From NCBI GenBank assembly GCA_041659325.1, contig JBAZYN010000002.1, positions 206,082 through 270,081 on the forward strand: 64,000 nt of DNA, written 5' to 3'. Every line of letters begins with the position of its first letter. The stretch's first letter is position 1. Positions 3,437 to 60,484 of the stretch are shown here, piece after piece. Source of the DNA: Candidatus Shapirobacteria bacterium (lineage in GTDB: Bacteria > Patescibacteriota > Microgenomatia > UBA12405). A program made the translations under genes and the position numbers. Under the pieces are notes generated by a model. That model saw only the letters and a list, made by a program, of their open reading frames with translations. It was not told the DNA's origin and made no database searches.

Positions 3437-3439
3437 AAG

Positions 3440-28651: not shown

Positions 28652-28662
28652 TTAAGTATAGA

Positions 28663-28724
28663 GTCTGAAAGTCGGAAAGTCGAAAGTCTAAAAGCCATGC
28701 CTGCCGGCAGGCAGGTCTAAAAGT
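28663..28724. repeat. GTCNAAA ('KSESLK') repeat plus palindrome GCCATGCCTGCCGGCAGGCAGGTC in intergenic spacer
   Basis: gtctgaaagtcggaaagtcgaaagtctaaaagccatgcctgccggcaggcaggtctaaaagt. Confidence 0.8.
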
Positions 28725-32792: not shown

Positions 32793-32826
32793 GTGGTCAA
32801 AAGGATAAAGTAAACGAGTCTAAAAG

Positions 32827-32862
32827 TTAAAAGTCTAAAAGTCGAAAGTATGAAAACATCAA
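32827..32862. repeat. GTCNAAA repeat overlapping the ppdK start codon
   Basis: gtctaaaagttaaaagtctaaaagtcgaaagtatgaaaac. Confidence 0.7.
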
Positions 32863-36525: not shown

Positions 36526-37173
36526 TTGGGAAAAGAGAAAAAATTTAAATCACCCTTTTTTAACGCTCCCCTGTCAAGGGGAGCTGTCCGTAGGACTGAG
36601 GGGTTTGAGATTAAAACCCCTTTTGTGTTTAAACCCTGTCCTAACCTTTCCCTTGACAGGTCAAGGCATAATATGTCATCTTCTCCCTATCAAGAGGAGG
36701 ATTTAAAATTCAAACCCCTCTTGTATTCTCCCCTTGACAGGGGAGAAAATGGGACGGGGATGAAAACCGGTATTATTTTTGAGGCTAAAACTAAAAAATA
36801 TCATTTGAAATATAGGGATTCTTTAACATGGGCAGCAAAAAATAATCGTAAAAATGAAACAGAAAGTGAAAAATTATTATGGAATAAGTTATTGAGGAAA
36901 AAGAATTTAGGTTATAAATTTACCAGACAAAAACCAATAAACAGGTTTATCGTTGATTTTTATTGTTCTGAATTAAGTTTAGCTATTGAAATAGACGGTG
37001 ATTCTCATAACCTTAGGAAGGACAGAGATAGTCTAAGAGATAAATATTTATATACCTGTGGAATTAAAACGTTAAGAATAAGCGATAAGGATGTGATAAA
37101 TGATATTGGAAAAGTAGAAAAAGAAATTAATGAATTTATTAGATGCTCCCCTGTCAAGGGGAGCTGTCCGTAG
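36526..37173 (+). CDS. DUF559 (Vsr-like endonuclease fold) domain protein; true start probably near 36760 (upstream part of ORF is repeat-encoded)
   Basis: LLWNKLLRKKNLGYKFTRQKPINRFIVDFYCSELSLAIEIDGDSHNLRKDRDSLRDKYLYTCGIKTLRISDKDV is the typical DUF559 core. Confidence 0.6.
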   Translation: MGKEKKFKSPFFNAPLSRGAVRRTEGFEIKTPFVFKPCPNLSLDRSRHNMSSSPYQEEDLKFKPLLYSPLDRGENGTGMKTGIIFEAKTKKYHLKYRDSLTWAAKNNRKNETESEKLLWNKLLRKKNLGYKFTRQKPINRFIVDFYCSELSLAIEIDGDSHNLRKDRDSLRDKYLYTCGIKTLRISDKDVINDIGKVEKEINEFIRCSPVKGSCP

Positions 37174-39475: not shown

Positions 39476-39878
39476 TAATATTATGGTAGCATTTTTGGAG
39501 ATGGGCAAGAAATGGTGGAGGTCCAAGTGGATTATTGATTTAATCTTGGTTTTGGGGATATTAATGGTGGCGTTGGGGGTGGGAATGGAAATCGAGGGCC
39601 AAAAACAGGTTTCTGAAGTGGTGGTGGAGAAGGGAGCAGTAAAGGGAGTAGTGGTGGCCCCGTCGGCGGCGGGAACAGGAATTAGAACAGGGATAAATAT
39701 CAACAAGGCCACGGCCGAAGAGTTGGACGTTTTGCCTGGTATCGGGCCGGCGATAGCTAAAAGAATAATAGAGTATAGGGAGAAAAACGGTGGTTTTTTG
39801 AATACAGAGGAAATTAAGTTAGTCAGCGGGATAGGAGAGAAATTGTTTGAAAAAATTAAGGACAAGATCACTATCTGA
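39465..39878 (+). CDS. comEA: competence protein ComEA (TM + helix-hairpin-helix DNA-binding domain); probable start at 39501 (MGKKWW...)
   Basis: GININKATAEELDVLPGIGPAIAKRIIEYREKNGGFLNTEEIKLVSGIGEKLFEKIKDKI is the ComEA HhH signature. Confidence 0.75.
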   Translation: MDCINIMVAFLEMGKKWWRSKWIIDLILVLGILMVALGVGMEIEGQKQVSEVVVEKGAVKGVVVAPSAAGTGIRTGININKATAEELDVLPGIGPAIAKRIIEYREKNGGFLNTEEIKLVSGIGEKLFEKIKDKITI

Positions 39879-40914
39879 ATGGATGGTAATGGCGGGATTG
39901 GTATTGGTGGGAATGGGGGTGGTTTCGATGTACAAGTTTATAAATAAGGATAGTTTGATTGGGGTAATAAATCAAAGTTTGCCGCCGCGGGAGGCGGGAT
40001 TGTTGGCCGGAATGCTTCTGGGGGATAGAAGTGGGTTTGAAAAAGATTTTTGGAAAGACTTAAAGGTGTCGGGAGTGGTGCATTTGGTGGTAGTGAGCGG
40101 GACAAATGTGGTGTTATTAAGCAGCTTATTGATTGAAAATTTGGCCCAATTTTTGGGGCGGAAAAAGACAATTGTGGGAGTATTGACTTTGGTATGGGGG
40201 TATGCCGGGATGGTAGGGTGGGAACCACCGGTAATCAGGGCAGTTTTGTTGGTCTCGATTTTATATTGGGCGCAACTTTTGGGAAGAAAATTCGATGTTT
40301 GGAGAAGTTTGATTTTGGTGGTAGCGATGATGGTGATTGCTGACCGGACAATGATTGGTGGGGTTAGTTTTTGGCTGTCGTTTCTGGCGTTTATTGGAGT
40401 AATAAGTCAATTACGAATTAACAATTACGAATTACGAATTAAAAATAAATATATATTAAATATGGTTGGTAATTTTATCACGACGGTGTGGGTGAGCTTG
40501 TGGATTACGCCGGTGATGGCAATGGTGTTTGGAAAAATTAGCCTGATATCGCCTTTTACAAATCTTTTGGTAATGTTTTTGGCGGAAACAGTATTTGTTG
40601 TGGGCGGAGTGGGGGTGGCGGCGGGGTTGATTTGGCCGTTTTTGGGCGAGGTGGTGTTGATATTAATTTTGCCCCTGTTGAAATATTTTGTAGTGATAAC
40701 GGAGTGGATGGGGAATATGAAATGGGCGAGTTTTGAAGTGAAATTTAATTGGTTGATGTTGGCGGGGTGGTATTTGATTTTGGGGTGGTTTTTGTTAAGA
40801 AGAAAGGGCGGACACGCCGGTCCGCCCGTACAGAAAATCGTGGGGGCGGGCCCAATTGATGCGCCCCCACAGAATAATGTAGGGGTCGACCGGGGTGTCG
40901 ACCCAAAAGGATAA
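39847..40914 (+). CDS. comEC: ComEC/Rec2 N-terminal part (DUF4131 + Competence TM domain); C-terminus is read-through into REP-like repeat
   Basis: LLAGMLLGDRSGFEKDFWKDLKVSGVVHLVVVSGTNVVLL...VLLVSILYWAQLLGRKFDVWRSL is the competence-domain motif. It carries an in-frame ATTACGA insert (QLRINNYELRIKNKY). The tail KGGHAGPPVQKIVGAG is encoded by the GC-rich hairpin repeat. Confidence 0.7.
   Translation: MKKLRTRSLSEWMVMAGLVLVGMGVVSMYKFINKDSLIGVINQSLPPREAGLLAGMLLGDRSGFEKDFWKDLKVSGVVHLVVVSGTNVVLLSSLLIENLAQFLGRKKTIVGVLTLVWGYAGMVGWEPPVIRAVLLVSILYWAQLLGRKFDVWRSLILVVAMMVIADRTMIGGVSFWLSFLAFIGVISQLRINNYELRIKNKYILNMVGNFITTVWVSLWITPVMAMVFGKISLISPFTNLLVMFLAETVFVVGGVGVAAGLIWPFLGEVVLILILPLLKYFVVITEWMGNMKWASFEVKFNWLMLAGWYLILGWFLLRRKGGHAGPPVQKIVGAGPIDAPPQNNVGVDRGVDPKG
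40409..40442. repeat. ATTACGA heptad repeat in-frame inside comEC
   Basis: caattacgaattaacaattacgaattacgaatt. Confidence 0.8.
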
Positions 40915-41620
40915 AAATGATATTTGGAAATAGAAAATCAATTAGATTGAAGGGATATGATTATTCGATGGGTGGGTATTATTTCGTGACGATATGTACG
41001 CAGGATAGGCGATGTTTATTTAGGGCGGACACCCGCCAGAGGCGGGTAGGCGTCGTCCGTCCGTACACGGAAATAAATGATATTGGAATTATGATGGATT
41101 ATTGGTGGAACGAATTGTCTAATCATTTTGATAATAAAATTAATTTGGATGAATACGTGATTATGCCTAATCATATACACGGAATAATTGTGATTAAAAA
41201 TATTAATAAGGGCGGACACGCCGGTCCGCCCGTACAGAAAATCGTAGGGGCAGGCCGATGTGCCTGCCCAAATGATCCGCCCGTACAGAAAATGGTAGGG
41301 GTCGACCGATGTGTCGAACCAAATGATGCACCCGTACAGAAAATTCCCATTAAATTAGGAGATGTTATTCGATGGTTTAAAACAATAACCACCAATGAAT
41401 ATATTAAGGAAAGAACATTAAACAATTGGCCGAAATTTGATAAGCGAATTTGGCAAAGAAATTATTATGAAAGGATTATCAGAAATGAAAAAGAATATAT
41501 AAAGGTCAAGAATTATATTAAGGCAAACATGTCTACCGGTGGGCAGGTTTTGTGACAATATGTACGCAGGATAGGCGATGTTTATTTAGGGCGGACACAC
41601 CGGTCCGCCCGTACAAAATT
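40806..41620 (+). mobile_element. RAYT/IS200-like element: Y1 (HuH) transposase gene flanked and interrupted by REP-like hairpin repeats GGGCGGACACGCCGGTCCGCCCGTACA
   Basis: Hairpin copies at 40806-40832, 41023-41069 (variant), 41210-41236, 41270-41295 (half), 41328-41345 (half) and 41589-41615. Additional GC hairpins at 40842-40870 and 40877-40908. Confidence 0.65.
40917..41555 (+). CDS. IS200/IS605-family Y1 transposase, REP-associated tyrosine transposase (RAYT)-like
   Basis: RLKGYDYSMGGYYFVTICTQDRRCLF...YVIMPNHIHGIIVI (HuH motif HIH)...EYIKVKNYIKAN (C-terminal Tyr region). REP-encoded in-frame inserts (KGGHAGPPVQKIVGAG). Confidence 0.7.
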   Translation: MIFGNRKSIRLKGYDYSMGGYYFVTICTQDRRCLFRADTRQRRVGVVRPYTEINDIGIMMDYWWNELSNHFDNKINLDEYVIMPNHIHGIIVIKNINKGGHAGPPVQKIVGAGRCACPNDPPVQKMVGVDRCVEPNDAPVQKIPIKLGDVIRWFKTITTNEYIKERTLNNWPKFDKRIWQRNYYERIIRNEKEYIKVKNYIKANMSTGGQVL

Positions 41621-41631
41621 AGGAATAATTT

Positions 41632-42450
41632 ATGAAAATTAAAATATTATTAGTAGTTAGCCTGATAGGGCTGGGAATTTGGTGGTGGGTTAACAGGCCA
41701 AACAATAATTTTAAAATGGTGTTTTGTGATGTCGGTCAGGGGGATGCGGCACTGGTGGTTTATGGTAATTTCCAGATGCTTATAGATGCAGGTCCCGAGA
41801 ACAGAAAGGTATTGAATTGTTTGGAGGATAATTTGCCGTTTGGGGATAAGCAACTGGAGTTAGCGGTAATAACCCACTGGGATTTGGACCACGCCGGTGG
41901 TATAAGAGATGTTTTGAATTATTACAAGATTGAAAAAGTGTTTTCCGGCACTAAACCGGAAGCGGGTTTTGAACAAATAAATTATACAGGTAATTTAAAG
42001 AGCGGTGATGTCATCAAATATGGATTGATGAGTTTTGAAATACTGTCAACGGAGGGAGTTGAGGGAAAAGGAGAGGATGAGGATAACGCTAATTCGGTGG
42101 TTGGGGTGTTAAGTTATAAGGACTATGTGTTTTTCATGATGGGAGATGCGCCGTTGGTAGTGGAGCAAAGACTGGTGTGGAGACAGATAGTCGAAAAGTC
42201 TCAAAGTCTTAAAGCCTCAAAGTCTGAAAATCTGAAAGTAGTATTAAAGGTGAGTCACCATGGGTCGGATACGGCTACGGGCGAGGAATTGTTGGAAGCG
42301 GTAAAGCCGAATATGGCGGTAGTTAGTGTGGGAAAAAATAATTTTGGGCATCCGGCGGAGGAGGTGATAAAAAGGCTTAACGAGAGGGGGATACAGATAT
42401 TAAGAACTGATATGATGGGGGAGATAGAGTTTGTAATCAGTAATCAGTAA
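41632..42450 (+). CDS. comEC: ComEC C-terminal metallo-beta-lactamase domain (separate ORF downstream of RAYT insertion)
   Basis: TM then MLIDAGPEN...AVITHWDLDHAGGIRDV...VSHHGSDTATGEELLEAVKPNMAVVSVGKNNFGHPAEEVIKRL. In-frame GTCNAAA insert (KSQSLKASKSENLKV) at 42190-42240. Confidence 0.65.
   Translation: MKIKILLVVSLIGLGIWWWVNRPNNNFKMVFCDVGQGDAALVVYGNFQMLIDAGPENRKVLNCLEDNLPFGDKQLELAVITHWDLDHAGGIRDVLNYYKIEKVFSGTKPEAGFEQINYTGNLKSGDVIKYGLMSFEILSTEGVEGKGEDEDNANSVVGVLSYKDYVFFMMGDAPLVVEQRLVWRQIVEKSQSLKASKSENLKVVLKVSHHGSDTATGEELLEAVKPNMAVVSVGKNNFGHPAEEVIKRLNERGIQILRTDMMGEIEFVISNQ
42190..42240. repeat. GTCNAAA repeat in-frame in comEC MBL domain
   Basis: gtcgaaaagtctcaaagtcttaaagcctcaaagtctgaaaatctgaaagt. 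Confidence 0.8.
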
Positions 42451-42475
42451 TCAGTAATCAGTAATCTGTAATCTG
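42432..42475. repeat. GTAATCW heptad repeat x6 spanning the comEC stop
   Basis: gtaatcagtaatcagtaatcagtaatcagtaatctgtaatctgg. Confidence 0.85.
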
Positions 42476-43668: not shown

Positions 43669-43968
43669 GTGGACAAGTGGAGACAGAGAATTCATAGATT
43701 AAGTATGAACCAACTAAAAGCGTTGGGGGTGTTGGCGGCGAGTAAAAACGGGATTGTGGAAGCATTGGAATCATCGGGTAATTTGCGTTTATACGGAAAA
43801 GCGTTGGGAGGAGTATTTTCGTCGCTGTCGCGACAAGTTTTGAACGGTCAGCATTTGATCGAGGCCTGGGGTCGTGTCGAACGCGGTAGGGGGTTGAGGT
43901 GGAAGCTGAACTTGGAAGCAATTAGTCAGCGGGAATTGAAAAAAGCGGTAGAGGAGGTACTGGGGTGA
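43669..43968 (+). CDS. small hypothetical protein, stop overlaps start of giant gene (ATGA)
   Basis: 99-aa ORF. The 4-bp overlap suggests translational coupling. Confidence 0.3.
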   Translation: MDKWRQRIHRLSMNQLKALGVLAASKNGIVEALESSGNLRLYGKALGGVFSSLSRQVLNGQHLIEAWGRVERGRGLRWKLNLEAISQRELKKAVEEVLG

Positions 43969-46900
43969 AATTTATCAATTACGAATTACGAATTACTAAT
44001 TACGAATTTAAAAAAATAGTAATTGTTCTGGTTTTGTGGGCGGTGGGATTGGGGGTGGGGTTAATTGGTGGGAATTATTGGTGGAATAATCGAAATGAGG
44101 TGTCGGCGGCAGACAGGGTGTTGACGACAACGGCAGATTTTGACGGGGGAAGATATATGAACATGGAGGCGGATTCAAAACAGGGGCAGCTTAAGTTAAA
44201 GGCTGACGGCTCCTGGGGGCCGAGAGTTTTTACGGTGCCCAACGTTAATTTGGGAAATGAGTCGCCGATAGCTTCGGATGGAAATTATATATATGTGATA
44301 GCTAGTGCGGATAATTATTTTGCCAGGTATATACCGGCGGAGGATAAATGGGAAACTTTGGCATCGGCACCTCACTATGCATATCCCGGTTCGGATATGG
44401 TGGTTTTGGGTGATTATGTATATGCGGTCTTTGGGGGATACCAGCGGGAGTTTAGCCGATATTCGATTGTCAATGACACCTGGGAGGAGATGGCAATGCT
44501 ACTGGATATAACATATGGAGGGACATCGCTGTCAACTGATGGGAATGAGATTTATTGTCTGCGGGGACATAATACGAATGATTTTTGGAAATATGATGTG
44601 CAAGCGGACAGGTGGACTCCGATTGGTAGTACTCCTTTGACGATCAGGTATGGAGCTGATTTGTCATATAGCAGTGAAACCAATAAAATGTATACCCCGA
44701 GGGGTAATAGTTCAAACGTTTTTTATATATATGATTTGGGAACAAGTATCTGGTCGATAGGACCAACATTGCCGGAGACGATGACCGAGGATAGCAACAG
44801 CGATATTGGCGGAACCGTGATTTATGTGCCCAGAGGAATCGGGACAAGTACTTTTTGGGCATTTAACGTGGGAACTACGCAGTGGAGTATTTTAACGGGA
44901 ACTCCCCAGATAACCAGATATGTGGGAGCGGTTTATAATGCGGCGGAAGACAAGGTTTATGTATTTAGGGGCAACGGAACCCCCGACTTTTGGAAATATG
45001 ACCCGGGGGCCAATAGCTTTCCGGGACCAACAGATTTGCCGGCGGCACCGGGGACGGGGTCGGATTTGATATATTCCGATGGATATTGGTATTACAATCG
45101 CGGAGGGACGACGGCAATGTATAGGTATAATGGGGCAGTGGGAGCGACTTGGCAGACAATGGCGGTGGGCTCATCGGTATTTTCGTCGGATACAAAAGGG
45201 GTAGCGGTAAATGGACTATTATATTATCTTCAGGGAGGTGGGGCAAGAAACTTTTTCAGCTTTAGTCCATCGGTGGGGGTGGGAGGAAGCTGGGGGACTT
45301 TGGCGACAATACCGGCGGCGATAGCACCAAATTATGGGGCGGGATTGGCATACCCAGGGAGCGGTGATTATATTTATGCTACCCGGGGAGTCGGAACCAG
45401 AACGTTTATGAGATATGATATGCCCGGCAATGTTTGGAGTGATGTTGGAGTGACGGATTTACCGGATGATGCAGAGGCGGGATATGGGTCGCGGATTATT
45501 GGAGTGGGAACGACGGAATTGTTTTATATTGCCGGAAACGGGGTTGCAAAATTTTTAAAATACAATATTACCAGTGATGCCTGGACGGTGTTGGGAAATT
45601 TGCCATTCTCTCCGTATTATGGGACAGATATGACATATTATGGTGGAAAGATGTATTTCCAGGCGGGATACTACAAGAGGGATATTTGGGAATATACGTT
45701 GGCAACAGGTGAGTGGAGACGTCTGGCGGATATTTCCGGATACAATGCGTCTGATAGCGGGCCTTATAACGGAGGATCGTTGGAGTCGGACGGGGCAGGG
45801 AATTTGTATTCGATTAATGGGGCGAATGTTTTGTGGATCAGAAGTTACTCGATAGGGAGCAGTAGGTATCCGGGTGGGGGGAGTTGGAATTCCGGGACAA
45901 TTGATTTGGAATATGCGGCGGGTTGGTCGGGAATAAATGTGGGAAAGACAACCCCCGGTGATTCGTCGGTGTCGGTGTATACCAGAAGTAGTAGTAACCA
46001 GACTAGTTGGTCGCCATGGCAGGAGGCGGTGGGGATGGGGATCTCCAGCCCCATAAATAGATACCTACAAATAGGAGTTTCGATGCATTCTTCAAGCGGG
46101 GGGAGTGAGACACCAATAATTAATGATATTACGGTGAGTTATATTGGGGATACCGGAGTGCCGACTAATCCGACGTCGATTAGCGGTTTGTCACAGCAGG
46201 TCGCCGGAGTAGGATTAACTTCCGGGCAGAGCTATTCTTATAACCAACCGTATTTTGATTGGAGTGGGGGGGGAGACACAGAAACATCGGTGGCAGGGTA
46301 TTATGTGTATTTTGGGACCGGAACAACGGCGACGGTCGACCCGGCGATCAGCGGCAGCTATCAGACGGACTCTAGCTATTTGGTAACAATGCCGATGCAA
46401 ACCGGGACTTATAGTTTGTTGATTAAAACAAAAGATCTGGGCGGGAATGTAAGCAATACTTGGCAGGCATTTGTGTATGTTTATAACGGAGTATCTCCTT
46501 TTATAAGTTTTGCTCAAGCGTCGACGCCTGAATTTTCGATAGGGACAACGGCGGGGGTGGATATTAGCAATAATAGAATCAGACTGATGGGGACAAGTGG
46601 GTTTTGGGAACAGGAGAGGTTGAGCTTGTTACAGGCTAATGTTACGGTTGGTAACGGGGGCGATGTGGCGGTAATGGGTAACAAGCTTTATATTATGAGA
46701 GGTAACGGAGGAAAGGAATTTTCTATTTATGATTTGTCTACCGATGTAGTATCGGTGGGACCGACAATGCCGGCAACGGTGGCGGCCGGAGGAGCTTTGG
46801 TAGAAGGACCGCCTGGGTATTTGTATGCTATGAGAGGAGGAGGGACATCGACTTTTTGGAGGTATGACATTGGGGCTAGTCTGTGGTCTGATGCTTTGGC

Positions 46901-49900
46901 GATGGATACACTGCAACAGACGAATTCGGGAGCGGCAATGGTGTATGACGAGGGAAATTATATTTATGCACTGAAGGGGAACGGAGACGATACTTTTATG
47001 AGATATGATGCTTCAATTGATAACTGGGAAGTGATGGCAAACAACGTTGTTTTTGGAGCACCAGAAAATCAGGCCGATAATTTAGTGAACTTAGGAGGGG
47101 ACTTGGCTTATGACGTGGGGACTAGCAGGGTTTATGCGATTCAGGGAAATTTAAGAACGGGGTTTGCTGTTTATGATGTCAATGCGGATTCGTGGTCTCA
47201 GCTACCAAATTTGCCGGCATTATCTTATTATGGGGCGAGGATCGAGTATGACTCGGGGACCGGGGCAGTGTTTTATATCCCCGGATGGGATAAACCATTT
47301 TTGTATAAGTATGATGTGGGGGAACAGGTTTGGACAAAGATATCAGACGCGCCGGCGGGGTTGGGATATGGGGCTAATTTGAGAAAGGTAGGAGGGTATC
47401 TTTATGTGACCCGAGGGGCATCGACAACGACGATATACAAGTATAATATTGCCAAAAATTCCTGGGTAGTGCCGAGTTGGAATCTATTTGGGGGTTGGTG
47501 GAGGGGGTCGGATAGCCGGACTTTTGCTGATGGGGCTGACATAATTCGGGGGGATGGAAACAATATGTATATTTTCAGGGGAAATTATGACAATTTGTTT
47601 GTAAAATATAATGCGACCACGGGTGAGGTGACAAAATTGACGGATGTTCCAGCCGGGATATTTAGGGGGTCAGAATTGGTGTATGATAGCGTAAATAATA
47701 AAATTTATGCCTCAACCAGTATCTATGATAAAAAGTTTATGGTTTATGACATAGCGACTGATGAGTGGTCTCAGGTGGTGGGAAGCGGGGGAACAATGCC
47801 CACCGATGCCGGGGAGGGATCATCTCTGGTGTTTGACGGGAGTGAATATATTTATCGGTTGAGGGGTGGCAATACGCAGACATTTCACAAATTTAGCGTG
47901 AATACCGGCTTGTGGTCGACACTGCCTAATACGCCGAGGGCGATGCAGTATGGGTCGGATTTGGAGATATACAACAGTAATTATTATGCTACCCGAGGAG
48001 CCGGAACGACTGAATTTTTTATGTTTAATCCAACTTTGGGGGTGTGGTCTTCGTCGCCGGCGATTGCCAGATTGCCGACGGGGATGACCTTTAATTATGA
48101 TGGGTTTTTGGTGAAAGGAGCGAGTGATAAAATGTATGGCTGTCGGGGAGGAAATACGGCTGATTGTTTTGTGTATTCGGTAATAAGTAATACCTGGACA
48201 TATATCGGGACAAGTATGCCGGCAAATTTAACCTACGGAGGAGCGGGGGCGATAAACCAAACCGGGGATAAAATGTATGTAATTGCCGGGGCGGGAACGA
48301 ATACCTATAGCAATGGACTCTATTCCTATGTGATTTCGACCGATAATTCATCGGTGGGTGAAAGCGGAACTTTTATATCGGGGGCTCATGATTTGGGAGA
48401 AGTGTTTAGGTATGCCAATTTAGAGGTGGGTTATAGTGCGGCGCCAAATACAACACTTATGGTATGGACGAGGACTTCTGACGATGGAGTAGGGTGGGGC
48501 AGTTGGGTGCAGGCATCATCGGAAAAACAGATTGGGAGTGATTTTTATTATCGAATTGGATCGACGGCGAAGCGGTATATTCAGGTTCGGTTTGATTTGG
48601 CCTCGGGAGACAAGATGTATTCGGGAACAATATATGACTATAAAATTAATTATTATCAGGATTCGGCCCCGCCAACCAATCCGACAATAATATCGGCTTT
48701 TGATAACGGCGGAATGGGGTCAACTTTGGTGTCGGGGACTTTTTATGCTACAACCGCCCCTTATTTTGATTGGCCGGGGGTGGGAGAAACCGGAGCGGCG
48801 GGTGATGGTAACGGTGGGTCTGGAGTAAATGGGTACTATGTTTATTTTGGCTTGGGAGAGACGGCTAATCCGGTATCCGGAGCCGGAACAACTTATACAA
48901 TAGCAACAGCGCATACCGGAACAGGAATGACAACGGGCAACCTGTATTATTTAAGACTTAAAGCAAAAGATGAGGCGGGGAATGTGGCCAGTGAGGTGGG
49001 GACGACATTTGTGTTTGGTTATGATGGGTCACCACCAACTAATCCGACAACGATTACAGCCGATCCACCGGGATACACGGCAACAAATAGTTTTGCTTTT
49101 TCTTGGAGTGGGGCCGGTGATACCGGGGCGGGGGTAGAAGGATATTATTATAAAACCGGTTCGGTAGGGGCGACAGAAGTCTTTACCACTGACTCAAATG
49201 TGGCGGGGATAGCAGCTTACCAAACAGGGACAAATACTTTTTATGTGAGGACAAAGGACTTGGCAGGAAATGTGTCGGAATATACCACTTCGTCATATTA
49301 TTGGAGCTCGACGGCGCCGGGAGCGCCGAGGGATTTAAGACTGACTTATCCTGATGTGGGGACAAGTAATACGGTTAATGAGTTTGCATTTGCCTGGTCG
49401 AGCCCGGATCCGGAAACGTATTTTGGGCAATTAAGCGGGCTGCGGTATTATTATTCGTTTAATGAAACGCCATCGGTAAGCAATGTTAATGAGGTTGGAT
49501 TAGCGGTGACTTATCTGTCGAAAGGGGCATATGCAACGCGTAGAGATACAAACACTTTATACGTGGTGGCGATGGATGAAGCAGGAAATATTGACTATAG
49601 AAATCGTGCCTCAATAGATTTTGAGGCATCAACTTCAGCACCGGGGACACCGGGAGATATTGATATTTCTGATGTGTCAATAAAAGAAAGCAGTGCCTGG
49701 AGATTGGCGCTGACTTGGGATACGCCGGTGGCAACCGGGTCGGGGGTATCAATGTATAAGGTTTATAGATCGACAACGACAGGAGCAGTTTGTACCAGTG
49801 ATTTTTCAGACTTTGAATATGCGTCGTCAACAACAGGGGTATCTTATGTGGATATCGGCCTAACTCAGGTGAAATATTATTATTGTGTGAAAGCCTGTGA

Positions 49901-51197
49901 TTCGACCAATGAATGTAGTGCCCCGTCCGGGACAGTGAGCTATAAGCCGGACGGAAAGTGGAAGGTAGCCCCGACAATGACGGCTAGCCCGTCGGCGACG
50001 ATTAAAACAAAGTCGGCAACAATAAGTTGGTCGACAAACAGAACCAGTAATTCGTTTGTAAAATACGGAAAGACATCGGGGACTTACGGGGAAGAAGTGG
50101 GATCGTCTGACCAGGTATCGTTGCACGAAATTACTTTAACCGGATTGGACCCGGGAACGACGTATTATTATATTACTCAATGGACTGACGAGGATGGGAA
50201 TACCGGATCTTCGGCCGAGCTGAACCTGACGACTAATGCGGCACCATTTGTGTCGGCAGTAAAAGTGGTAGATACCGGATTGTACTCGGTCTATGTGGAG
50301 TTTAATTTAAGCAATGCAACAACGGCGACGGTGCAGTACGGGAAAACAATAAGTTACGGAGGGGTGCAAACGGTAACAACATCCCGGGAGGCGAGTAGTT
50401 ATACGGTAAAAATAGAGGGATTAGACGAGGGAACGGAATATCATTTGCGGATTGCCGCCAATGACGAGGAGGGTAATACTTTTGCTAGCGATGACTATAC
50501 CTTTGAAACATTGCCGGTACCAAAGATTAGCGGGGTAAAAATTCAGCAGGTCAAGGGTATGCCGACGGCGACGGTGCGGTTTTTATGGAAGACGAATACC
50601 GGAGTCAGTTCAATTATTACCTATTATCCTGAAGGAAGGGCGGAAATGGCCCGGGATCAAATATCGTTGCCTTTGACGTTAAATCATGAAATGATGATAA
50701 AAGATTTGTTGGATGATACGCCATATGTGTTTGTAATAAAGGGGAAAGATGTGATAGGAAACAGCGCTGAGCCCAGTCCTCAGAAATTTACAACATCGAC
50801 TGATTTGAGGCCGCCATCTATTTCTAACTTAAGACTAGAGGCTTCGGTGGCCGGGGTAGGCGAAGAGGCGAAAGCGCAAATTACTTTATACTGGGATACC
50901 GATGAGCCGTCGACGGCTCAGGTGGAGTACGGAGCCGGGACCGGATCTGATTATCCGAGTAAAACTCAGAAAGATGTGATTATGGTAATGAACCACACAG
51001 TAACAGTGACGGATTTGGCGCCGGGGCAGGTATACCACTTGCGGGTTTTGGCAGAGGATAGGGTGCAAAATTTGACAATGTCCTATGATAACGTGGTGAT
51101 TACACCAAAGGCGACCAGATCAGCCCTGGATTTGGTGGTAGAAAATTTGTCAAAGAGTTTTGGATTCTTTAATAATTTGTCGCAAGTAGCTAAATAA
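43965..51197 (+). CDS. giant (2410 aa) membrane-anchored surface protein with many Kelch-type beta-propeller blades and C-terminal FN3/PKD-like domains
   Basis: N-terminal TM. Dozens of repeats of the form YxxxG..x(F/Y)xxYDxxxxxW (e.g. DKVYVFRGNGTPDFWKYD). FN3-like segments (SATISWSTNRTSNSFVKYGKTSGTYGEE...HEITLTGLDPGTTYYY). The N-terminus KFINYELRITNYEF is encoded by the ATTACGA repeat. Confidence 0.7.
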   Translation: MKFINYELRITNYEFKKIVIVLVLWAVGLGVGLIGGNYWWNNRNEVSAADRVLTTTADFDGGRYMNMEADSKQGQLKLKADGSWGPRVFTVPNVNLGNESPIASDGNYIYVIASADNYFARYIPAEDKWETLASAPHYAYPGSDMVVLGDYVYAVFGGYQREFSRYSIVNDTWEEMAMLLDITYGGTSLSTDGNEIYCLRGHNTNDFWKYDVQADRWTPIGSTPLTIRYGADLSYSSETNKMYTPRGNSSNVFYIYDLGTSIWSIGPTLPETMTEDSNSDIGGTVIYVPRGIGTSTFWAFNVGTTQWSILTGTPQITRYVGAVYNAAEDKVYVFRGNGTPDFWKYDPGANSFPGPTDLPAAPGTGSDLIYSDGYWYYNRGGTTAMYRYNGAVGATWQTMAVGSSVFSSDTKGVAVNGLLYYLQGGGARNFFSFSPSVGVGGSWGTLATIPAAIAPNYGAGLAYPGSGDYIYATRGVGTRTFMRYDMPGNVWSDVGVTDLPDDAEAGYGSRIIGVGTTELFYIAGNGVAKFLKYNITSDAWTVLGNLPFSPYYGTDMTYYGGKMYFQAGYYKRDIWEYTLATGEWRRLADISGYNASDSGPYNGGSLESDGAGNLYSINGANVLWIRSYSIGSSRYPGGGSWNSGTIDLEYAAGWSGINVGKTTPGDSSVSVYTRSSSNQTSWSPWQEAVGMGISSPINRYLQIGVSMHSSSGGSETPIINDITVSYIGDTGVPTNPTSISGLSQQVAGVGLTSGQSYSYNQPYFDWSGGGDTETSVAGYYVYFGTGTTATVDPAISGSYQTDSSYLVTMPMQTGTYSLLIKTKDLGGNVSNTWQAFVYVYNGVSPFISFAQASTPEFSIGTTAGVDISNNRIRLMGTSGFWEQERLSLLQANVTVGNGGDVAVMGNKLYIMRGNGGKEFSIYDLSTDVVSVGPTMPATVAAGGALVEGPPGYLYAMRGGGTSTFWRYDIGASLWSDALAMDTLQQTNSGAAMVYDEGNYIYALKGNGDDTFMRYDASIDNWEVMANNVVFGAPENQADNLVNLGGDLAYDVGTSRVYAIQGNLRTGFAVYDVNADSWSQLPNLPALSYYGARIEYDSGTGAVFYIPGWDKPFLYKYDVGEQVWTKISDAPAGLGYGANLRKVGGYLYVTRGASTTTIYKYNIAKNSWVVPSWNLFGGWWRGSDSRTFADGADIIRGDGNNMYIFRGNYDNLFVKYNATTGEVTKLTDVPAGIFRGSELVYDSVNNKIYASTSIYDKKFMVYDIATDEWSQVVGSGGTMPTDAGEGSSLVFDGSEYIYRLRGGNTQTFHKFSVNTGLWSTLPNTPRAMQYGSDLEIYNSNYYATRGAGTTEFFMFNPTLGVWSSSPAIARLPTGMTFNYDGFLVKGASDKMYGCRGGNTADCFVYSVISNTWTYIGTSMPANLTYGGAGAINQTGDKMYVIAGAGTNTYSNGLYSYVISTDNSSVGESGTFISGAHDLGEVFRYANLEVGYSAAPNTTLMVWTRTSDDGVGWGSWVQASSEKQIGSDFYYRIGSTAKRYIQVRFDLASGDKMYSGTIYDYKINYYQDSAPPTNPTIISAFDNGGMGSTLVSGTFYATTAPYFDWPGVGETGAAGDGNGGSGVNGYYVYFGLGETANPVSGAGTTYTIATAHTGTGMTTGNLYYLRLKAKDEAGNVASEVGTTFVFGYDGSPPTNPTTITADPPGYTATNSFAFSWSGAGDTGAGVEGYYYKTGSVGATEVFTTDSNVAGIAAYQTGTNTFYVRTKDLAGNVSEYTTSSYYWSSTAPGAPRDLRLTYPDVGTSNTVNEFAFAWSSPDPETYFGQLSGLRYYYSFNETPSVSNVNEVGLAVTYLSKGAYATRRDTNTLYVVAMDEAGNIDYRNRASIDFEASTSAPGTPGDIDISDVSIKESSAWRLALTWDTPVATGSGVSMYKVYRSTTTGAVCTSDFSDFEYASSTTGVSYVDIGLTQVKYYYCVKACDSTNECSAPSGTVSYKPDGKWKVAPTMTASPSATIKTKSATISWSTNRTSNSFVKYGKTSGTYGEEVGSSDQVSLHEITLTGLDPGTTYYYITQWTDEDGNTGSSAELNLTTNAAPFVSAVKVVDTGLYSVYVEFNLSNATTATVQYGKTISYGGVQTVTTSREASSYTVKIEGLDEGTEYHLRIAANDEEGNTFASDDYTFETLPVPKISGVKIQQVKGMPTATVRFLWKTNTGVSSIITYYPEGRAEMARDQISLPLTLNHEMMIKDLLDDTPYVFVIKGKDVIGNSAEPSPQKFTTSTDLRPPSISNLRLEASVAGVGEEAKAQITLYWDTDEPSTAQVEYGAGTGSDYPSKTQKDVIMVMNHTVTVTDLAPGQVYHLRVLAEDRVQNLTMSYDNVVITPKATRSALDLVVENLSKSFGFFNNLSQVAK
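43977..44009. repeat. ATTACGA heptad repeat encoding the N-terminus of the 2410-aa protein
   Basis: caattacgaattacgaattactaattacgaatt. Confidence 0.85.
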
Positions 51198-51232
51198 TTA
51201 ATTACGAATTATGAATTACGAATTACGAATTA
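51198..51232. repeat. ATTACGA heptad repeat at giant-gene stop / ABC-gene upstream
   Basis: taattaattacgaattatgaattacgaattacgaatt. Confidence 0.85.
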
Positions 51233-54186: not shown

Positions 54187-54250
54187 GAAAGTCTAAAAGT
54201 CTGAAAGTCTTAAAGTCGAAAGTTATAAAGTTCATAAAGTTTATAAAGAG
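54187..54250. repeat. GTCNAAA repeat (intergenic)
   Basis: gaaagtctaaaagtctgaaagtcttaaagtcgaaagttataaagttcataaagtttataaag. Confidence 0.8.
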
Positions 54251-54680: not shown

Positions 54681-57383
54681 ATGAATTTTGCTGAAATCGA
54701 GCCAAAATGGTTAAAGTTTTGGAATGAGCATCCGGAGCTTTATAGAGCCACTGAGTCTGAAAGTCTGAAAGCCATGCCTGCCGGCAGGCAGGTCTTAAAG
54801 TCTGAAAGTAAAAAAGATAAAAAATACATTTTGGTGGAGTTTCCGTATCCGAGTGGAAGCGGATTGCATGTTGGTCATGCTTTTAGTTTTACGGCAGCAG
54901 ACATATATGCCAGGTTTAAGAGAATGCAGGGGTATAATGTGATGTTTCCTATGGGGTGGGATGCGTTTGGACTGCCGACTGAGAATTATGCAATAAAGAT
55001 GAAGCGGAAACCACAAGAGATTGCCCGGGAGAATATTGATATGTTTAGGGAGCAGGCGAAGAGGTTGGCGCTTTCTTTTGATTGGGAGAGAGAAGTAAGC
55101 ACGATTGATCCAAATTATTATAAATGGACTCAATGGATTTTTATACAATTATTTAAGAAGGGATTGGCATACAAGAAAGAGATGCCGATTAATTGGTGTC
55201 CTTCATGTAAAATCGGTTTGGCAAATGAAGAAGTAGTGGATGGGAAGTGTGAACGGTGTGGGGCAGAAGTTTCAAGAAGAAATATTTCCCAATGGGTGGT
55301 AAAAATTACTAATTATGCAGACCGACTGCTAGAAGGGTTAAAAAATACCGATTTTATCGATAAAGTAAAACAGGCGCAGATAAACTGGATTGATCGTAAA
55401 GAATGGATCGATATTACTTATCCGATTGAAGGAACGAAAGAAACAGTGACAGTGGCAACGACCAGGCCGGATACAAATTTTGGAGCGACTTTTATTGTGT
55501 TGGCGCCGGAACATGATTTGGTAAGTAAGTTGACAACCGGAATGCTAAAAACGGATCAGGACTTAAAAGAGATAAAGAACTATGTGGTTAAAGCTAAGAG
55601 GAAATCGGAATTAGAAAGGCAGCGGGAAGTAACCGGTAGGGATAAAACGGGGGTGTTTACCGGATTGTATGCAATTAACCACTTAACAAATAAAAAAATG
55701 CCGATTTGGATAACGGATTTTGTATTGGCAACAGTGGGAACGGGGGCGGTGGTTGGAGTGCCGGGACACGATATTCGTGATTTTGAATTTGCCAAGCAAT
55801 TTGGTCTGGAGGTGAAAAGAGTAGTAGTAGGTAAAGATGGTGATAAATCGGAAATAATCAAAAAGGAACAGGTTCAGGAAGAGGAGGGGGAGATGGTCAA
55901 TTCCGGTTTTCTTGACGGACTCGGTATCCATGAGGCAACAAAAAAGGTTATGGATTATTTGGAAGAGAAGGGGTGGGGGAAAAGATCGATCAGATATCAC
56001 TTAAGAGACTGGATATTTTCCAGGCAGCATTATTGGGGAGAGCCAATACCGATGATTTTTTGCGAAAAATGCGCAGAAAATCAAACCCTACCCCCGGCCC
56101 CTTCCCTTGACAGGGCAGGGGAAAAAGAAATTCTCCCTTGTCAAGGGGAGATGGCCGAAGGCCAGAGGGGTTTGAATTGCGGTTGGGTTCCGGTGCCGGA
56201 GGATCAACTGCCAATTAAGTTGCCGGAGGTTGAGGCGTATGAGCCGACTGAGGACGGGAAGAGCCCGTTGTCAAAAATTGAAAGCTTTGTGAAGTGCAAA
56301 TGCCCGGTATGCGGGGGCGAGGCAAAGAGGGAAACGGATACAATGCCAAACTGGGCGGGATCTGACTGGTATTATCTCGCATATTTATTACCTAATATGC
56401 GAGAGTCTGAAAGTCAAAAGTCAAAAGTCGAAAGTAATAAGGGAAATATTTTTATTGAAAATCAAGAGAAACTAAGAGAATGGATGCCGGTTGATATATA
56501 TATTGGCGGGGATGAACACAATACTTTGCATTTGCTGTATTCCCGGTTTATTTACCAGTTTTTATGGGATTTGGGAGTGGTCCCCAAAGAGTATCCGGAG
56601 CCGTATATAAAGCGGGTATCGCATGGGGTGATTTTGGGGCCGGATAATCAGAGGATGAGTAAGTCGAAGGGAAATATAATAGTGCCGGAAAAGGTGTCTG
56701 AGGTATATGGAGTGGATGTGATTAGGTGCTATCTAATGTTTATGGGACCGTTTGATGCAGTAATGGCATGGAATGAAAAAACTTTAATGGGGGTGAAGAG
56801 GTTTTTGGATAGGTTTAGTAAATATATTAATGATCAATTACGAATTACCCACCTCGGCGGGCAGGCGAATTACGAATTAGACATAGTGTCTGCTAGCAAA
56901 GCCGAGGATAAAGTGTTTATCAATAAGATGGTGGCCGGGGTGACAAAGGACTTAGAAGAATTTGGCTATAACACGGCGATAGCGAAGATGATGGAAGGAA
57001 TAAATCAATTACGAATTAATAATTACGAATTACGAATTGAGGAAATAAAAACGTTAATTAAATTAATTGCGCCGTTTGCGCCGTATTTGGGGGAGGAGCT
57101 TTGGAGCATGTGTGGAGAAAAGGGGTCGGTACATGTTTCTGCCTGGCCGGTGGCAGAGGATAAGTATTTGGTTGAGAAGACAATTACAATAGCGGTGGCG
57201 ATTAATGGAAAAGTGAGGGATCAGATAGAAGTCGAAAGTCTAAAAGTCTTAAAGTCTGAAAGTAAAGAAGAAATTATTGCGGAGGCAAAGAAATTGGAAA
57301 AGATTCAAAAGTGGCTGGAAGGAAAGAAGATTATCAGAGAAATATATGTGCCGGGGAAGATGGTTAATTTTGTAGTAGAGTAG
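54681..57383 (+). CDS. leuS: leucyl-tRNA synthetase carrying five in-frame repeat-derived insertions
   Basis: HIGH-class motif PYPSGSGLHVGHAFSFTAADIYARF. KMSKS as RMSKSKGN. Editing and anticodon-binding regions. Inserts at 54754-54812, 56085-56180, 56401-56436, 56836-56879 and 57007-57040/57231-57266. Confidence 0.9.
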   Translation: MNFAEIEPKWLKFWNEHPELYRATESESLKAMPAGRQVLKSESKKDKKYILVEFPYPSGSGLHVGHAFSFTAADIYARFKRMQGYNVMFPMGWDAFGLPTENYAIKMKRKPQEIARENIDMFREQAKRLALSFDWEREVSTIDPNYYKWTQWIFIQLFKKGLAYKKEMPINWCPSCKIGLANEEVVDGKCERCGAEVSRRNISQWVVKITNYADRLLEGLKNTDFIDKVKQAQINWIDRKEWIDITYPIEGTKETVTVATTRPDTNFGATFIVLAPEHDLVSKLTTGMLKTDQDLKEIKNYVVKAKRKSELERQREVTGRDKTGVFTGLYAINHLTNKKMPIWITDFVLATVGTGAVVGVPGHDIRDFEFAKQFGLEVKRVVVGKDGDKSEIIKKEQVQEEEGEMVNSGFLDGLGIHEATKKVMDYLEEKGWGKRSIRYHLRDWIFSRQHYWGEPIPMIFCEKCAENQTLPPAPSLDRAGEKEILPCQGEMAEGQRGLNCGWVPVPEDQLPIKLPEVEAYEPTEDGKSPLSKIESFVKCKCPVCGGEAKRETDTMPNWAGSDWYYLAYLLPNMRESESQKSKVESNKGNIFIENQEKLREWMPVDIYIGGDEHNTLHLLYSRFIYQFLWDLGVVPKEYPEPYIKRVSHGVILGPDNQRMSKSKGNIIVPEKVSEVYGVDVIRCYLMFMGPFDAVMAWNEKTLMGVKRFLDRFSKYINDQLRITHLGGQANYELDIVSASKAEDKVFINKMVAGVTKDLEEFGYNTAIAKMMEGINQLRINNYELRIEEIKTLIKLIAPFAPYLGEELWSMCGEKGSVHVSAWPVAEDKYLVEKTITIAVAINGKVRDQIEVESLKVLKSESKEEIIAEAKKLEKIQKWLEGKKIIREIYVPGKMVNFVVE
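54754..54812. repeat. GTCNAAA repeat + GCCATGCCTGCCGGCAGGCAGGTC palindrome in-frame in leuS (ESESLKAMPAGRQVLKSESKKD)
   Basis: agtctgaaagtctgaaagccatgcctgccggcaggcaggtcttaaagtctgaaagt. Confidence 0.85.
56085..56180. repeat. copy of DUF559-element terminal repeat (CCCTTGTCAAGGGGAG...GAGGGGTTTGA) inserted in-frame in leuS
   Basis: ccttcccttgacagggcagggg...ctcccttgtcaaggggagatggccgaaggccagaggggtttgaattg. It encodes PAPSLDRAGEKEILPCQGEMAEGQRGLNCG, which is absent from E. coli LeuS at this position (recalled from memory). Confidence 0.7.
56401..56436. repeat. GTCNAAA repeat in-frame in leuS (ESESQKSKVESNKG)
   Basis: gagagtctgaaagtcaaaagtcaaaagtcgaaagt. Confidence 0.8.
56836..56879. repeat. ATTACGA repeat (interrupted by cctcggcgggcaggcg) in-frame in leuS
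   Basis: caattacgaattacccacctcggcgggcaggcgaattacgaatt. Confidence 0.75.
57007..57040. repeat. ATTACGA repeat in-frame in leuS (QLRINNYELRIEE)
   Basis: caattacgaattaataattacgaattacgaatt. Confidence 0.85.
57231..57266. repeat. GTCNAAA repeat in-frame in leuS (VESLKVLKSESKEE)
   Basis: gtcgaaagtctaaaagtcttaaagtctgaaagt. Confidence 0.8.
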
Positions 57384-59193: not shown

Positions 59194-59760
59194 GAATACT
59201 AACAGAGTATTGTAAGTATTTGGAGTATTTTTAGCAAAAAGGTTTTTGACTGCCAGACTAAATATATGAGTAAATAGTGCCTAATGTTTCGGATCTAGTT
59301 GATATGAAGTGGTTGATAGTTTGTGAATATTTTCGGATAATTATTGTTAGTCTAGGACTAATATTGCTTTGTGAACAATGTATATCACTTAAGAACATCG
59401 ATATTTTAGGCTTAGAGAATAATGTTTTGTGAAAATCAAAGCGGTGAAATAAGTGGTTTTGAAGGTAGAGGGAGCCCTTTTTTCAGAAATATAACTAGGG
59501 TGCGGTTATTAGGATGTAGTTAGGGTTTATATGATATATAAAGGTAAGGTTACCAGACACTCCTATTTGCGGATATGAAATTTTACCGAAAATATATTTT
59601 TGAGAGAAAAAGTAGAAGAGAAAGTGCGGGGAATAAGCGGTAAGGTGCGGAGATAGGGGTATAGTAGGTATAAAAGATGCGGTAAAATTGTGAAACGTAA
59701 TATCAGTTTAAGCTGATAAACGTTTCAACAACGTAAGTTCCTGAAAGGAACTGTACGTTG

Positions 59761-59832
59761 TGTCCCCACCGAGAATCGAACTCGGATCTGCTGCTTAGGA
59801 GGCGGCTATTCTATCCATTGAACTATAGGGAC
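59761..59832 (-). tRNA. tRNA-Arg (anticodon CCU); CCA not encoded
   Basis: Hand-folded cloverleaf on the minus strand. Acceptor GUCCCUA/UGGGGAC. T-arm CCGAG-UUCGAUU-CUCGG. Anticodon loop CUCCUAA. One C-A mismatch in the anticodon stem. Confidence 0.55.
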
Positions 59833-59850
59833 GGAGTAAAATAATTATAA

Positions 59851-59876
59851 ATTACGAATTACGAATTACGAATTGG
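59851..59876. repeat. ATTACGA heptad repeat between the two tRNA genes
   Basis: aattacgaattacgaattacgaatt. Confidence 0.85.
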
Positions 59877-59955
59877 TATCGACTAGATTTGTTATTTATT
59901 AAAGTTCTGCAGTGGGTGGTCGCCATCGCTTTGATAAATTTGCTACGGTGACCGA

Positions 59956-60067
59956 TGTCGGGGTTACTGGATTTCCCCCATTCGGGGGATAAACTTCTCA
60001 TCCAGTAACTTGGTCGGGGTTACTGGATTTCCCCCATTCGGGGGATAAACTTCTCATCCAGTAACTT
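59956..60067 (-). repeat. two tandem 56-bp units each starting with a copy of the tRNA-Pro 3' end (gtcggggttactggatt) followed by a hairpin-containing 39-bp tail
   Basis: Units at 59956-60011 and 60012-60067. The third occurrence of the 17-mer (60068-60084) is the genuine 3' end of tRNA-Pro. Confidence 0.7.
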
Positions 60068-60142
60068 GGTCGGGGTTACTGGATTCGAACCAGCAGCCTC
60101 AGCGTCCCGAACGCTGCGCGCTAGCCAATTGCGCCAAACCCC
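60066..60142 (-). tRNA. tRNA-Pro (anticodon CGG) with encoded CCA
   Basis: Minus strand. Acceptor CGGGGUU/AACCCCG (C1-G72, typical of bacterial tRNA-Pro). D-stem GCGC. Anticodon loop UUCGGGA. T-arm GCUGG-UUCGAAU-CCAGU. A73 then CCA. Confidence 0.75.
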
Positions 60143-60484
60143 GATAAGGATTCTCTTATATCTTAATGTACAGGCAAAAAGGGATGGAAAGTTAAGGTTC
60201 TGTCAGAAATTCCCAGAGCCTTTTTGCAAGGACTATTATATCCTATTTGAGGTGTTTTTTCCGATGGTATGTATTTATATAGAAGGAATAGGATAGGAAT
60301 ATATTGATGTGTTAGGCGAAAATGACGAGGTTATAAAATTGGCAAAAGGAGTGGGGCGGTGCTAAAAGATTTATTGTTTTATATTGATGAAAAGTGAGGG
60401 GAAAACATGAGTTTGAGGCAATATGGGTTTTGGTGGAAAAAGAATGAATTGGATATGATAGTAGAAAGGGGTTTTTTGATAATT

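Follow-up and report, generated by a model that had tools for sequence, protein, structure and literature searches.

The tandem array between tRNA-Pro and tRNA-Arg

The stretch of DNA analyzed here (the window, 64,000 nucleotides of contig JBAZYN010000002.1, assembly GCA_041659325.1, from a Candidatus Shapirobacteria bacterium) contains a short tandem array that starts within a minus-strand tRNA-Pro(CGG) gene and occupies part of the spacer ahead of tRNA-Arg(CCT). Tandem Repeats Finder (TRF) described the array at 59957-60085 with a period of 56, 2.3 copies, 100% matches, 0 indels and a score of 258. A repeat search of the window returned two 56-nt copies (59957-60012 and 60013-60068) and three copies of the 17-mer GTCGGGGTTACTGGATT, starting at 59957, 60013 and 60069. 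Both analyses bear out an earlier note on this DNA, which had reported the 17-mer as triplicated at 56-bp spacing, with coordinates one base too low. The 39-nt tail that separates the 17-mers occurs exactly twice in the window, as against 0 times across 100 shuffles, and the three occurrences of the 17-mer were reached in no shuffle. The parts of the locus, all on the minus strand, are as follows, with the basis of each assignment in brackets.

60067..60143, minus strand: tRNA-Pro(CGG), CCA encoded (ARAGORN; Rfam tRNA, 64.2 bits)
60069-60085, minus strand: 17-mer copy 1, AATCCAGTAACCCCGAC, the last 17 nt of tRNA-Pro before its final CA, hence the real 3' strand (repeat positions)
60030..60068, minus strand: tail 1, 39 nt, made up of CA (which completes the CCA), A, the arm GTTACTGGAT (60056-60065), GAGAAGTTTAT, the hairpin CCCCC-GAAT-GGGGG (60031-60044) and A (exact second copy, inverted repeats, fold)
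60013..60029, minus strand: 17-mer copy 2, a perfect T-loop/T-stem/acceptor 3' strand to C74 (repeat positions)
59974..60012, minus strand: tail 2, the same as tail 1 in sequence, with its arm at 60000-60009 and its hairpin at 59975-59988 (exact copy)
59957..59973, minus strand: 17-mer copy 3, followed by the unrelated flank ATCGGTCACCG without CCA (repeat positions)
59833..59956, minus strand: remainder of the tRNA-Pro/tRNA-Arg spacer, 124 nt, outside the unit, holding (AATTCGT)x3.6 at 59850-59874
59760..59832, minus strand: tRNA-Arg(CCT), without encoded CCA, the downstream partner gene (ARAGORN, Rfam)

Read along the transcribed strand, the order is tRNA-Pro ending in ...GGTTCG-AATCCAGTAACCCCGAC; CAAGTTACTGGATGAGAAGTTTATCCCCCGAATGGGGGA and the 17-mer; the identical 39 nt and the 17-mer once more; the 124 nt that open with ATCGGTCACCG; tRNA-Arg; and a long hairpin. 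Each 17-mer begins with the last three bases of the T-loop, continues along the 3' strands of the T-stem and the acceptor stem, and ends past the discriminator at C74. The first and second 17-mers are followed by CA and the third is not. The tail (or filler) has four parts, namely the inverted arm, the motif GAGAAGTTTAT, a 5-bp GC hairpin with a tetraloop, and a single A. The arm GTTACTGGAT is a perfect 10-nt inverted copy of ATCCAGTAAC in the tRNA T-stem/acceptor 3' strand, and when extended by GAGAA it matches the reverse complement of the tRNA sequence TTCGAATCCAGTAAC at 13/15 positions. With the upstream 17-mer the arm makes up the 29-bp palindrome ATCCAGTAAC-CCCGACCAA-GTTACTGGAT, which has 10-bp arms and a 9-bp centre; with the downstream 17-mer it makes up a 47-nt hairpin enclosing the GC hairpin. 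Both of the hairpins that had been noticed earlier in the tail are present, CCCCC-GAAT-GGGGG and the perfect 10-bp pairing of GTTACTGGAT with ATCCAGTAAC.

One unit is predicted to fold at -23.1 kcal/mol (z = -4.2 vs shuffles). In the predicted fold of the whole precursor each arm can pair with either neighboring 17-mer, and in the ensemble centroid the first arm competes with the 3' strand of tRNA-Pro itself. Two further proposals for this interval were rejected. The 124-nt spacer is not an older, decayed unit, its local alignment to four unit variants being no better than that of shuffles, and the unit is not a small open reading frame (ORF), as the ATG in GGATGAGAAG is missing from two related loci (L077 and L081, described below).

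Occupied and empty tRNA-Pro loci in related genomes

Related loci (numbered with the prefix L) were collected from a metagenome scan with the last 21 nt of the tRNA-Pro, which gave 8 loci, together with the loci of M16 homologues at 71-73% identity. Five occupied loci were found, the window included; the other four are as follows.

L068: tRNA-Pro(CGG), the tRNA identical to that of the window; at least two tandem units, both with the loop GCGTA; the contig ends inside unit 2
L077: tRNA-Pro(CGG); one unit, TTGATCGGCATTACTGGATAAGAAGTTTATCCCCCGCATAGGGGGA followed by the 17-mer
L081: tRNA-Pro(CGG); one unit, its second 17-mer split by a 20-nt insertion with a further inverted GGGTTAC
L074: tRNA-Pro(GGG) with the same 3' end; one diverged unit, AAAATACAATGGGTTAATGGATGAGAAGCAAGGTACCCTTTAGGGTA followed by the 17-mer

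The unit is confined to tRNA-Pro genes ending in AATCCAGTAACCCCGAC, where it stands at two different genes (CGG and GGG) in 0, 1 or at least 2 copies. No unit is present at the CGG gene in L069 (= L078), L079 and L080, in which 4 nt separate the CCA from tRNA-Arg, or at the GGG gene in L070, L071, L072 and L075; nor is there one at the tRNA-Pro genes with other acceptor stems in more distant relatives (L003, L004, L016, L085-L087 and L089-L098). In relatives that lack the unit, tRNA-Arg begins 4-12 nt past tRNA-Pro. The comparison of related tRNA-Pro loci that the earlier note had proposed thus revealed presence and absence among close relatives (L078/L069 vs L077), and units at both a CGG and a GGG gene. 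Outside tRNA-Pro loci, the core motif was absent from the window and from ~0.9 Mb of related loci. The concern that the tail might be a generic terminator consequently falls away, as in the sequence searched it is not widespread and its core was seen at tRNA-Pro loci alone. Two other possibilities at the empty loci were set aside. A weak inverted half-site (B') in the empty sites proved unusable, the by-eye matches ranging from 2/10 to 7/10 with shifting spacers, and no integrase lies beside the tRNA-Pro(GGG) of L070, whose neighbors are a coiled-coil/zinc-finger-like small ORF (weak Pfam matches), RecA, RecX, RNase Y and HU.

Whether the array could be an assembly artefact or a chance repeat has to be asked, since short-read assemblies are prone to error at perfect tandem repeats, contig L068 terminates within its second unit, and the two Logan contigs of the window's organism end at 59872 and ~60541, so that the array is not spanned. 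However, five independent assemblies, made from different samples, all contain units, and these differ from lineage to lineage; two of the five show two or more tandem copies, and the shuffles gave zero matches. The tandem form recurs in the independent assembly L068, against the suspicion of an artefact that had been voiced earlier, and we regard artefact or chance as barely credible. The unit is real; its copy number in the window's organism is that given by the assembly of the window.

The copies stand head to tail, as in a minisatellite, and their number varies from 2.3 in the window and at least 2 in L068 to 1 in L077, L081 and L074 and 0 in L078. When the 32 non-loop positions of the filler core are compared with the window, 32/32 are identical in L068 and 30/32 in L077; L081 differs by 3 substitutions and 1 indel, and L074 retains about 22/32 (~69%). 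The coding DNA of the L069/L077 species is 71-76% identical to that of the window. Because the filler is more conserved than coding DNA, it has been either constrained or recently spread. Filler length ranges from 39 to 47 nt across lineages, and the motif RAGAAG(TTTAT) is conserved within it. The second 17-mer is intact (17/17) in L068, L077 and L074 and disrupted in L081. At the divergence rate of the filler, a perfect 17-mer in L074 would have a probability of ~0.002 by our estimate; its persistence next to a diverged filler indicates that selection, gene conversion or renewed copying from the target maintains the second 17-mer. The CCA of the tRNA is completed by the CA of the filler in the window and in L068.

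The loop of the GC hairpin differs in each lineage (GAAT, GCGTA, GCATA, GAGTA and TTTA). The pairing of its stem is kept in L074, where TACCC/GGGTA stands in place of CCCCC/GGGGG through two double changes, as seen in one diverged sequence. Array copies are identical within a lineage and arrays differ between lineages, a pattern that points to recent amplification or homogenization inside each lineage. Finally, L077 and L078, which come from different assemblies, are 99.85-100% identical over flanks of 4.8 kb and 1.75 kb and differ solely between tRNA-Pro and tRNA-Arg, by 69 nt.

A proposed cargo-free cassette and its alternatives

Taken together, these results define a lineage-specific non-coding cassette in a small clade of Shapirobacteria-like bacteria of the Candidate Phyla Radiation (CPR). 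Our tentative reading, to which we assign a probability of about 0.4, is that the array is a cargo-free miniature cassette at the tRNA-Pro 3' end that resembles an attachment (att) site. We favor it because the repeat extends from the T-loop to the 3' end of the tRNA, because the CCA is restored, and because an inverted half-site follows after a 9-bp centre in three of the five lineages. An identity block running from the T-loop to the 3' end is what is expected of tRNA-targeting integrases. Direct repeats of part of the tRNA lie around the insert in the form of the three perfect 17-mers, and tRNA-Pro itself remains intact at 64.2 bits. Partial tRNAs are known to flank integrated elements, and stacks of them arise from successive integrations in tycheposons (10.1101/2020.12.28.424599).

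It is the anatomy of the unit that suggests the action of a recombinase. The 17-mer would consist of a 10-nt half-site, ATCCAGTAAC, and the adjoining overlap (CCCGAC...), with the inverted half-site GTTACTGGAT following after the 9-bp centre; the junction after the tRNA would then correspond to attL, the junction between units to attP, and the last 17-mer with its flank to attR. The 10-9-10 palindrome is present in the window, L068 and L081, being perfect in the first two and carrying one arm mismatch in L081. On this model the unit would have originated in an att-type insertion without cargo, and host recombination would later have propagated and varied the units, as the comparative pattern suggests. 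Recombination or slippage between the 17-mers would allow arrays to grow, shrink and homogenize, and spacer alleles would be exchanged among strains through the homology of tRNA-Pro and tRNA-Arg. The unit would be co-transcribed in the pre-tRNA, where the arm may pair with the extra copy of the 3' end and so leave the folding of tRNA-Pro undisturbed.

A number of observations weigh against the att-like cassette. No recombinase or transposase Pfam match was obtained in the scanned ORFs of at least 150 aa in the 64-kb window or in the flanks of L070. Searches of IMG/VR with the junction, the hairpin, the gapped unit pattern and the 17-mer returned no attP-like copy, the sole 17-mer match (L076) being a chance one within an ORF, and blastn against phages and plasmids matched the tRNA body alone, again with no attP-like copy. 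The integrase and the matching attP for which the earlier note had recommended looking were accordingly absent from the scanned ORFs, the L070 flanks and the viral, phage and plasmid collections. Among the loci collected with the tRNA end and the flanking M16 gene, none has the two halves of the filler parted by cargo. Integrase core sites have inverted half-sites at a fixed spacing, around an overlap of 6-8 bp. Here the centre between the arms measures 9 bp in the window, L068 and L081, 15 bp in L077 and 14-18 bp in L074, and such variation is not expected of an active core site. In addition, the structure of the inner hairpin is kept, which site-specific recombination alone does not predict, and a circle of 56 bp would be implausibly small for a free intermediate.

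The strain-level difference also speaks against precise site-specific recombination. In L077 and L078 the 6-12 nt that adjoin tRNA-Arg differ as well (CAAACTATATCT vs CATCTT), and no clean loss between 17-mers is seen, so that the difference appears not to be a precise att x att product. A single replacement of the spacer by homologous recombination via both conserved tRNA genes would be a simpler account than two or more separate mutations in genomes that are otherwise identical. The window contains the competence gene ComEC, which makes DNA uptake plausible.

The proposal that the repeats are att scars or a miniature element targeting this tRNA can therefore be retained in part. A cargo-free miniature insertion, specific to tRNA-Pro and lying between direct copies of the tRNA 3' end, is upheld. 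Scars of integrase-mediated insertion and excision are not: precise excision is scarless, a filler of 39-47 nt is common to five lineages, and the difference between L077 and L078 is imprecise. Nor is the filler a random remnant of a deletion, given that its short form of 39-47 nt is conserved in five lineages.

The same anatomy can be approached without any recombinase. Template switching or a quasi-palindrome mutation at the tRNA 3' end could generate a direct-inverted-direct arrangement by duplication and inversion, after which slippage or unequal crossing-over would multiply it and homologous recombination would spread it, the product being neutral or selfish DNA. This account, which we judge somewhat unlikely, draws on the inverted partial copy of the T-loop-to-acceptor segment in the filler (13/15 in the window and ~15/19 in L074, by our alignment), on the nested inverted GGGTTAC in the second 17-mer of L081, which suggests ongoing palindrome-generating mutation, and on the failure to find a recombinase in the scanned ORFs. 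Slippage or unequal crossover also fits the perfect tandem copies and their lineage-specific homogenization, and allele replacement fits the L077/L078 difference better than precise insertion does. What it leaves unexplained is that the edges of the block fall within the T-loop and at the 3' end of the tRNA in every lineage, that 21-22 nt of non-tRNA filler (TTTAT and the hairpin) separate the inverted from the direct copy, and that the filler is conserved above the level of coding DNA. The position of the unit, which is transcribed in the direction shared by the tRNA genes on either side, can instead be read in terms of a functional structured trailer RNA within the tRNA-Pro/tRNA-Arg precursor. 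Such an RNA would have an acceptor/T-stem-like helix (GTT+ACTGG with CCAGT+AAC), a GC-hairpin cap and the end ...CCCCGACCA, and could serve as a processing signal (e.g., for an RNase P-type cut 3' of the tRNA-Pro CCA), as a spacer or insulator, or as a decoy for factors that act on the tRNA-Pro 3' end. The stable predicted fold (z = -4.2) with one architecture in four variants, the double changes that keep the hairpin stem in L074 while loops are hypervariable, the RAGAAG conserved in the internal loop, and a second 17-mer that is perfect where the filler has diverged by 31% are all in its favor. We nevertheless consider such a functional RNA distinctly improbable: no Rfam family is matched even at E <= 10, the unit is dispensable in that close relatives have a spacer of 4-6 nt (L078, L087), the outer stem is broken in L081, and the covariation comes from a single diverged sequence. 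Moreover, the helix is followed by an 8-nt tail and not by NCCA, making it a poor minihelix mimic, and the arm competes with the tRNA-Pro 3' strand in the ensemble centroid.

A further explanation, corresponding to the residual attL/attR scars that the earlier note gave as its first option, is that the repeats are the relic attL and attR of a large integrative element, a prophage or island, whose interior has been deleted. Foreign sequence is indeed flanked by direct repeats of a tRNA 3' end, and true inserts do occur in other tRNA genes of related CPR contigs, such as the apparent GIY-YIG cassette at the tRNA-Tyr of L053. Stacked partial tRNAs are moreover a known trace of repeated integrations (10.1101/2020.12.28.424599). 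However, five lineages and two genes share one short filler together with its junctions, which indicates that the short form itself was inherited or spread, a full-length relative was not found in the viral, phage or plasmid searches, and excision leaves no scars; a deleted element is, in our view, very unlikely. We also considered whether the unit represents a new kind of miniature element or RNA tied to one tRNA end, that is, a protein-free cassette mobilized in trans or a tRNA-mimicking trailer RNA, and we hold this to be rather unlikely. In the first version a host recombinase may act in trans on a cassette that homes to the tRNA-Pro 3' end via its tRNA-copied half-site and overlap; in the second, a trailer that mimics the acceptor/T-stem may have a role in tRNA-Pro maturation or 3'-end protection in CPR bacteria.

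These findings bear on how such loci are read. Repeated tRNA 3' ends are routinely taken as the footprints of large elements, and they need not mark lost islands, because here ~40 bp of conserved, structured, non-coding DNA persists and varies alone. Should a recombinase act on the unit, CPR bacteria, about whose mobile DNA little is known, would possess a natural att cassette of minimal size and a possible model system; should the RNA be of importance, structured trailers attached to tRNAs would form a new class. The locus is a strain-level marker and a natural recombination slot between two conserved tRNA genes.

Surroundings of the locus and comparison with known systems

The surroundings of the array in the window are those of an ordinary chromosome, with genes for LeuRS, an M16 peptidase, Ham1-like and HAD proteins, an ABC transporter, Rho, PPDK, ComEC and giant surface proteins. 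The M16 protein is listed by NCBI under a Candidatus Shapirobacteria MAG, and the nearest GTDB species representatives reach ~50% identity only. ComEC lies at 39847-40914, a metallo-beta-lactamase-fold ORF at 41632-42450 and a DUF559 endonuclease-like ORF at 36526-37173. Three giant ORFs at 11359-19113 (2584 aa), 20849-28651 (2600 aa) and 43965-51197 (2410 aa) contain LVIVD, Laminin_G_3 and Kelch/fn3 repeats and probably encode surface proteins. Short-period arrays of two or three heptamer/octamer motifs stand chiefly at gene boundaries, with two located within the 3' part of the LeuRS ORF: (AATTACG)n at 40409-40441, 43977-44008, 51200-51232, 57007-57038 and 59850-59874; (GTAATCT/GTAATCA)n at 8422-8447, 9052-9077 and 42433-42473; and (GAAAGTCT)n at 3287-3441, 28662-28694, 32817-32849, 33039-33113, 42195-42239, 54187-54231 and 57235-57263. 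Heptamer arrays of L069 cross-match those of the window. Longer tandem repeats comprise a perfect 47-bp unit x 2.9 at 3304-3437, built from AAAGTCT-type octamers between the Rho and M23 peptidase genes, a 21/63-bp unit x 3-10 at 5104-5307 inside the pilin-like ORF 4568-5884, and a 51-bp unit x 2.4 with 85% matches at 41225-41344 inside the ORF 40917-41555.

Between the M16 gene and tRNA-Arg (59500-59690) there is a cluster of TGCGG(T/A)... 9-mers, four of which were found by pattern match and more by eye. The reverse complement of these 9-mers, T(T/A)NNCCGCA, is similar to a DnaA box, and CTCCGCA/ACCGCA motifs occur at the same place in L004 and L069. The plus-strand GC skew is very strong (+0.2 to +0.45) over positions 1-60000 whatever the gene orientation, with a local dip at 60.5-62 kb. 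A replication terminus or dif region was considered for this dip and rejected, as the dip is local and the skew turns positive again.

Inserts and repeated tRNA fragments were also seen at other loci. In L053 (9328-9960) tRNA-Tyr is interrupted by an insert of ~540 bp, within which lie another complete tRNA-Tyr and a small ORF that is GIY-YIG nuclease-like by eye; a direct repeat of ~50 nt of tRNA-Tyr, from the anticodon loop to the T-loop, flanks the insert, which has the look of a mobile cassette lodged in a CPR tRNA gene. In L024 (11007-11155), tRNA-Thr(GGT) is followed by 41 nt, the last of which form the perfect palindrome CCCCGAGTACTCGGGG; next comes a 32-nt copy of the tRNA-Thr variable loop, T arm and acceptor 3' strand, so that a hairpin stands right before a tRNA 3' copy in a layout resembling the tRNA-Pro unit. 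Additionally, the GC-rich hairpin element GCAATTTCAGCCAMAGGCTGATSGGCCTCTGGCC accompanies partial tRNA-Pro copies in L073 (1-151) and L003 (8080-8200, minus strand). The element in L073 precedes a chimeric tRNA 3' fragment, whose T-stem 5' strand is of the local type and whose 3' strand and acceptor correspond to those of the window, indicating a recombination junction in the T-loop; in L003 the element has the real tRNA-Pro on one side and 13 nt copied from the tRNA 5' end on the other.

Several established classes were examined for the unit and rejected. For a miniature inverted-repeat transposable element (MITE), inverted arms of 10-12 bp are available, but in L077 and L074 they are bordered by different bases, giving no consistent target-site duplication, and dispersed copies are lacking, the core standing at tRNA-Pro loci alone in the sequence surveyed. 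In a CRISPR array the repeats measure 23-47 nt; here the repeat is 17 nt or else the "spacers" are identical, and no cas domains occur in the scanned ORFs. The attC site of integrons (57-141 nt, RYYYAAC...GTTRRRY) does not fit by inspection, since the 47-nt hairpin reads GTT...AAC whichever strand is taken, only 9 nt lie within the AAC...GTT palindrome, and the R-box consensus is unmatched. An intrinsic terminator would require a U-tract where AAATCC follows the hairpin, and a terminator scan reported none in the units. As for a known RNA or hammerhead ribozyme, in Rfam 15 only the two tRNAs match, and the best match of the unit scores 11.6 bits (E = 5.5).

A full-text literature search did not find such a unit described. 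Of the systems with which it can be compared, the unit appears most like a pair of att sites without an element, comparable to cis-mobilizable elements (CIMEs) or to Xer-dependent modules. With the attL and attR of tyrosine integrases, as in CIMEs and tycheposons, it shares direct repeats of a tRNA 3' end, the restored CCA (window and L068), tandem stacking and candidate inverted half-sites around a short centre; it differs from them in an insert of 39-47 bp without integrase, excisionase or arm-type repeats, in that no free attP was found, in variable arm spacing, in a short form conserved across species, and in an imprecise strain polymorphism. Integrative mobile elements exploiting Xer (IMEX) and the pdif modules of Acinetobacter are small or cargo-poor, have sites of ~28 bp with inverted arms and a short centre, and use the Xer recombinases of the host in place of their own. 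The unit would resemble these in its small size or poverty of cargo, its inverted arms around a short centre and its lack of a recombinase of its own, whereas its site seems to be built from a tRNA 3' end, unlike the dif consensus sequences.

MITE-like and repetitive extragenic palindrome (REP)-like sequences, and the GC palindromes that flank tRNA genes in fungal mitochondria, are likewise short non-coding intergenic hairpins, often near tRNA genes in AT-rich genomes, subject to presence and absence. The unit departs from these in residing, undispersed, at one kind of target only (tRNA-Pro with a shared 3' end) and in having tRNA sequence itself as its "terminal inverted repeat". Minisatellites are matched by the identical head-to-tail copies, by their number of 0, 1 or at least 2 among relatives and by homogenization per lineage, yet the unit embeds a piece of a functional gene together with its inverted complement, and its internal structure is conserved between species. 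The finding belongs with the known insertions bounded by direct repeats of tRNA ends.

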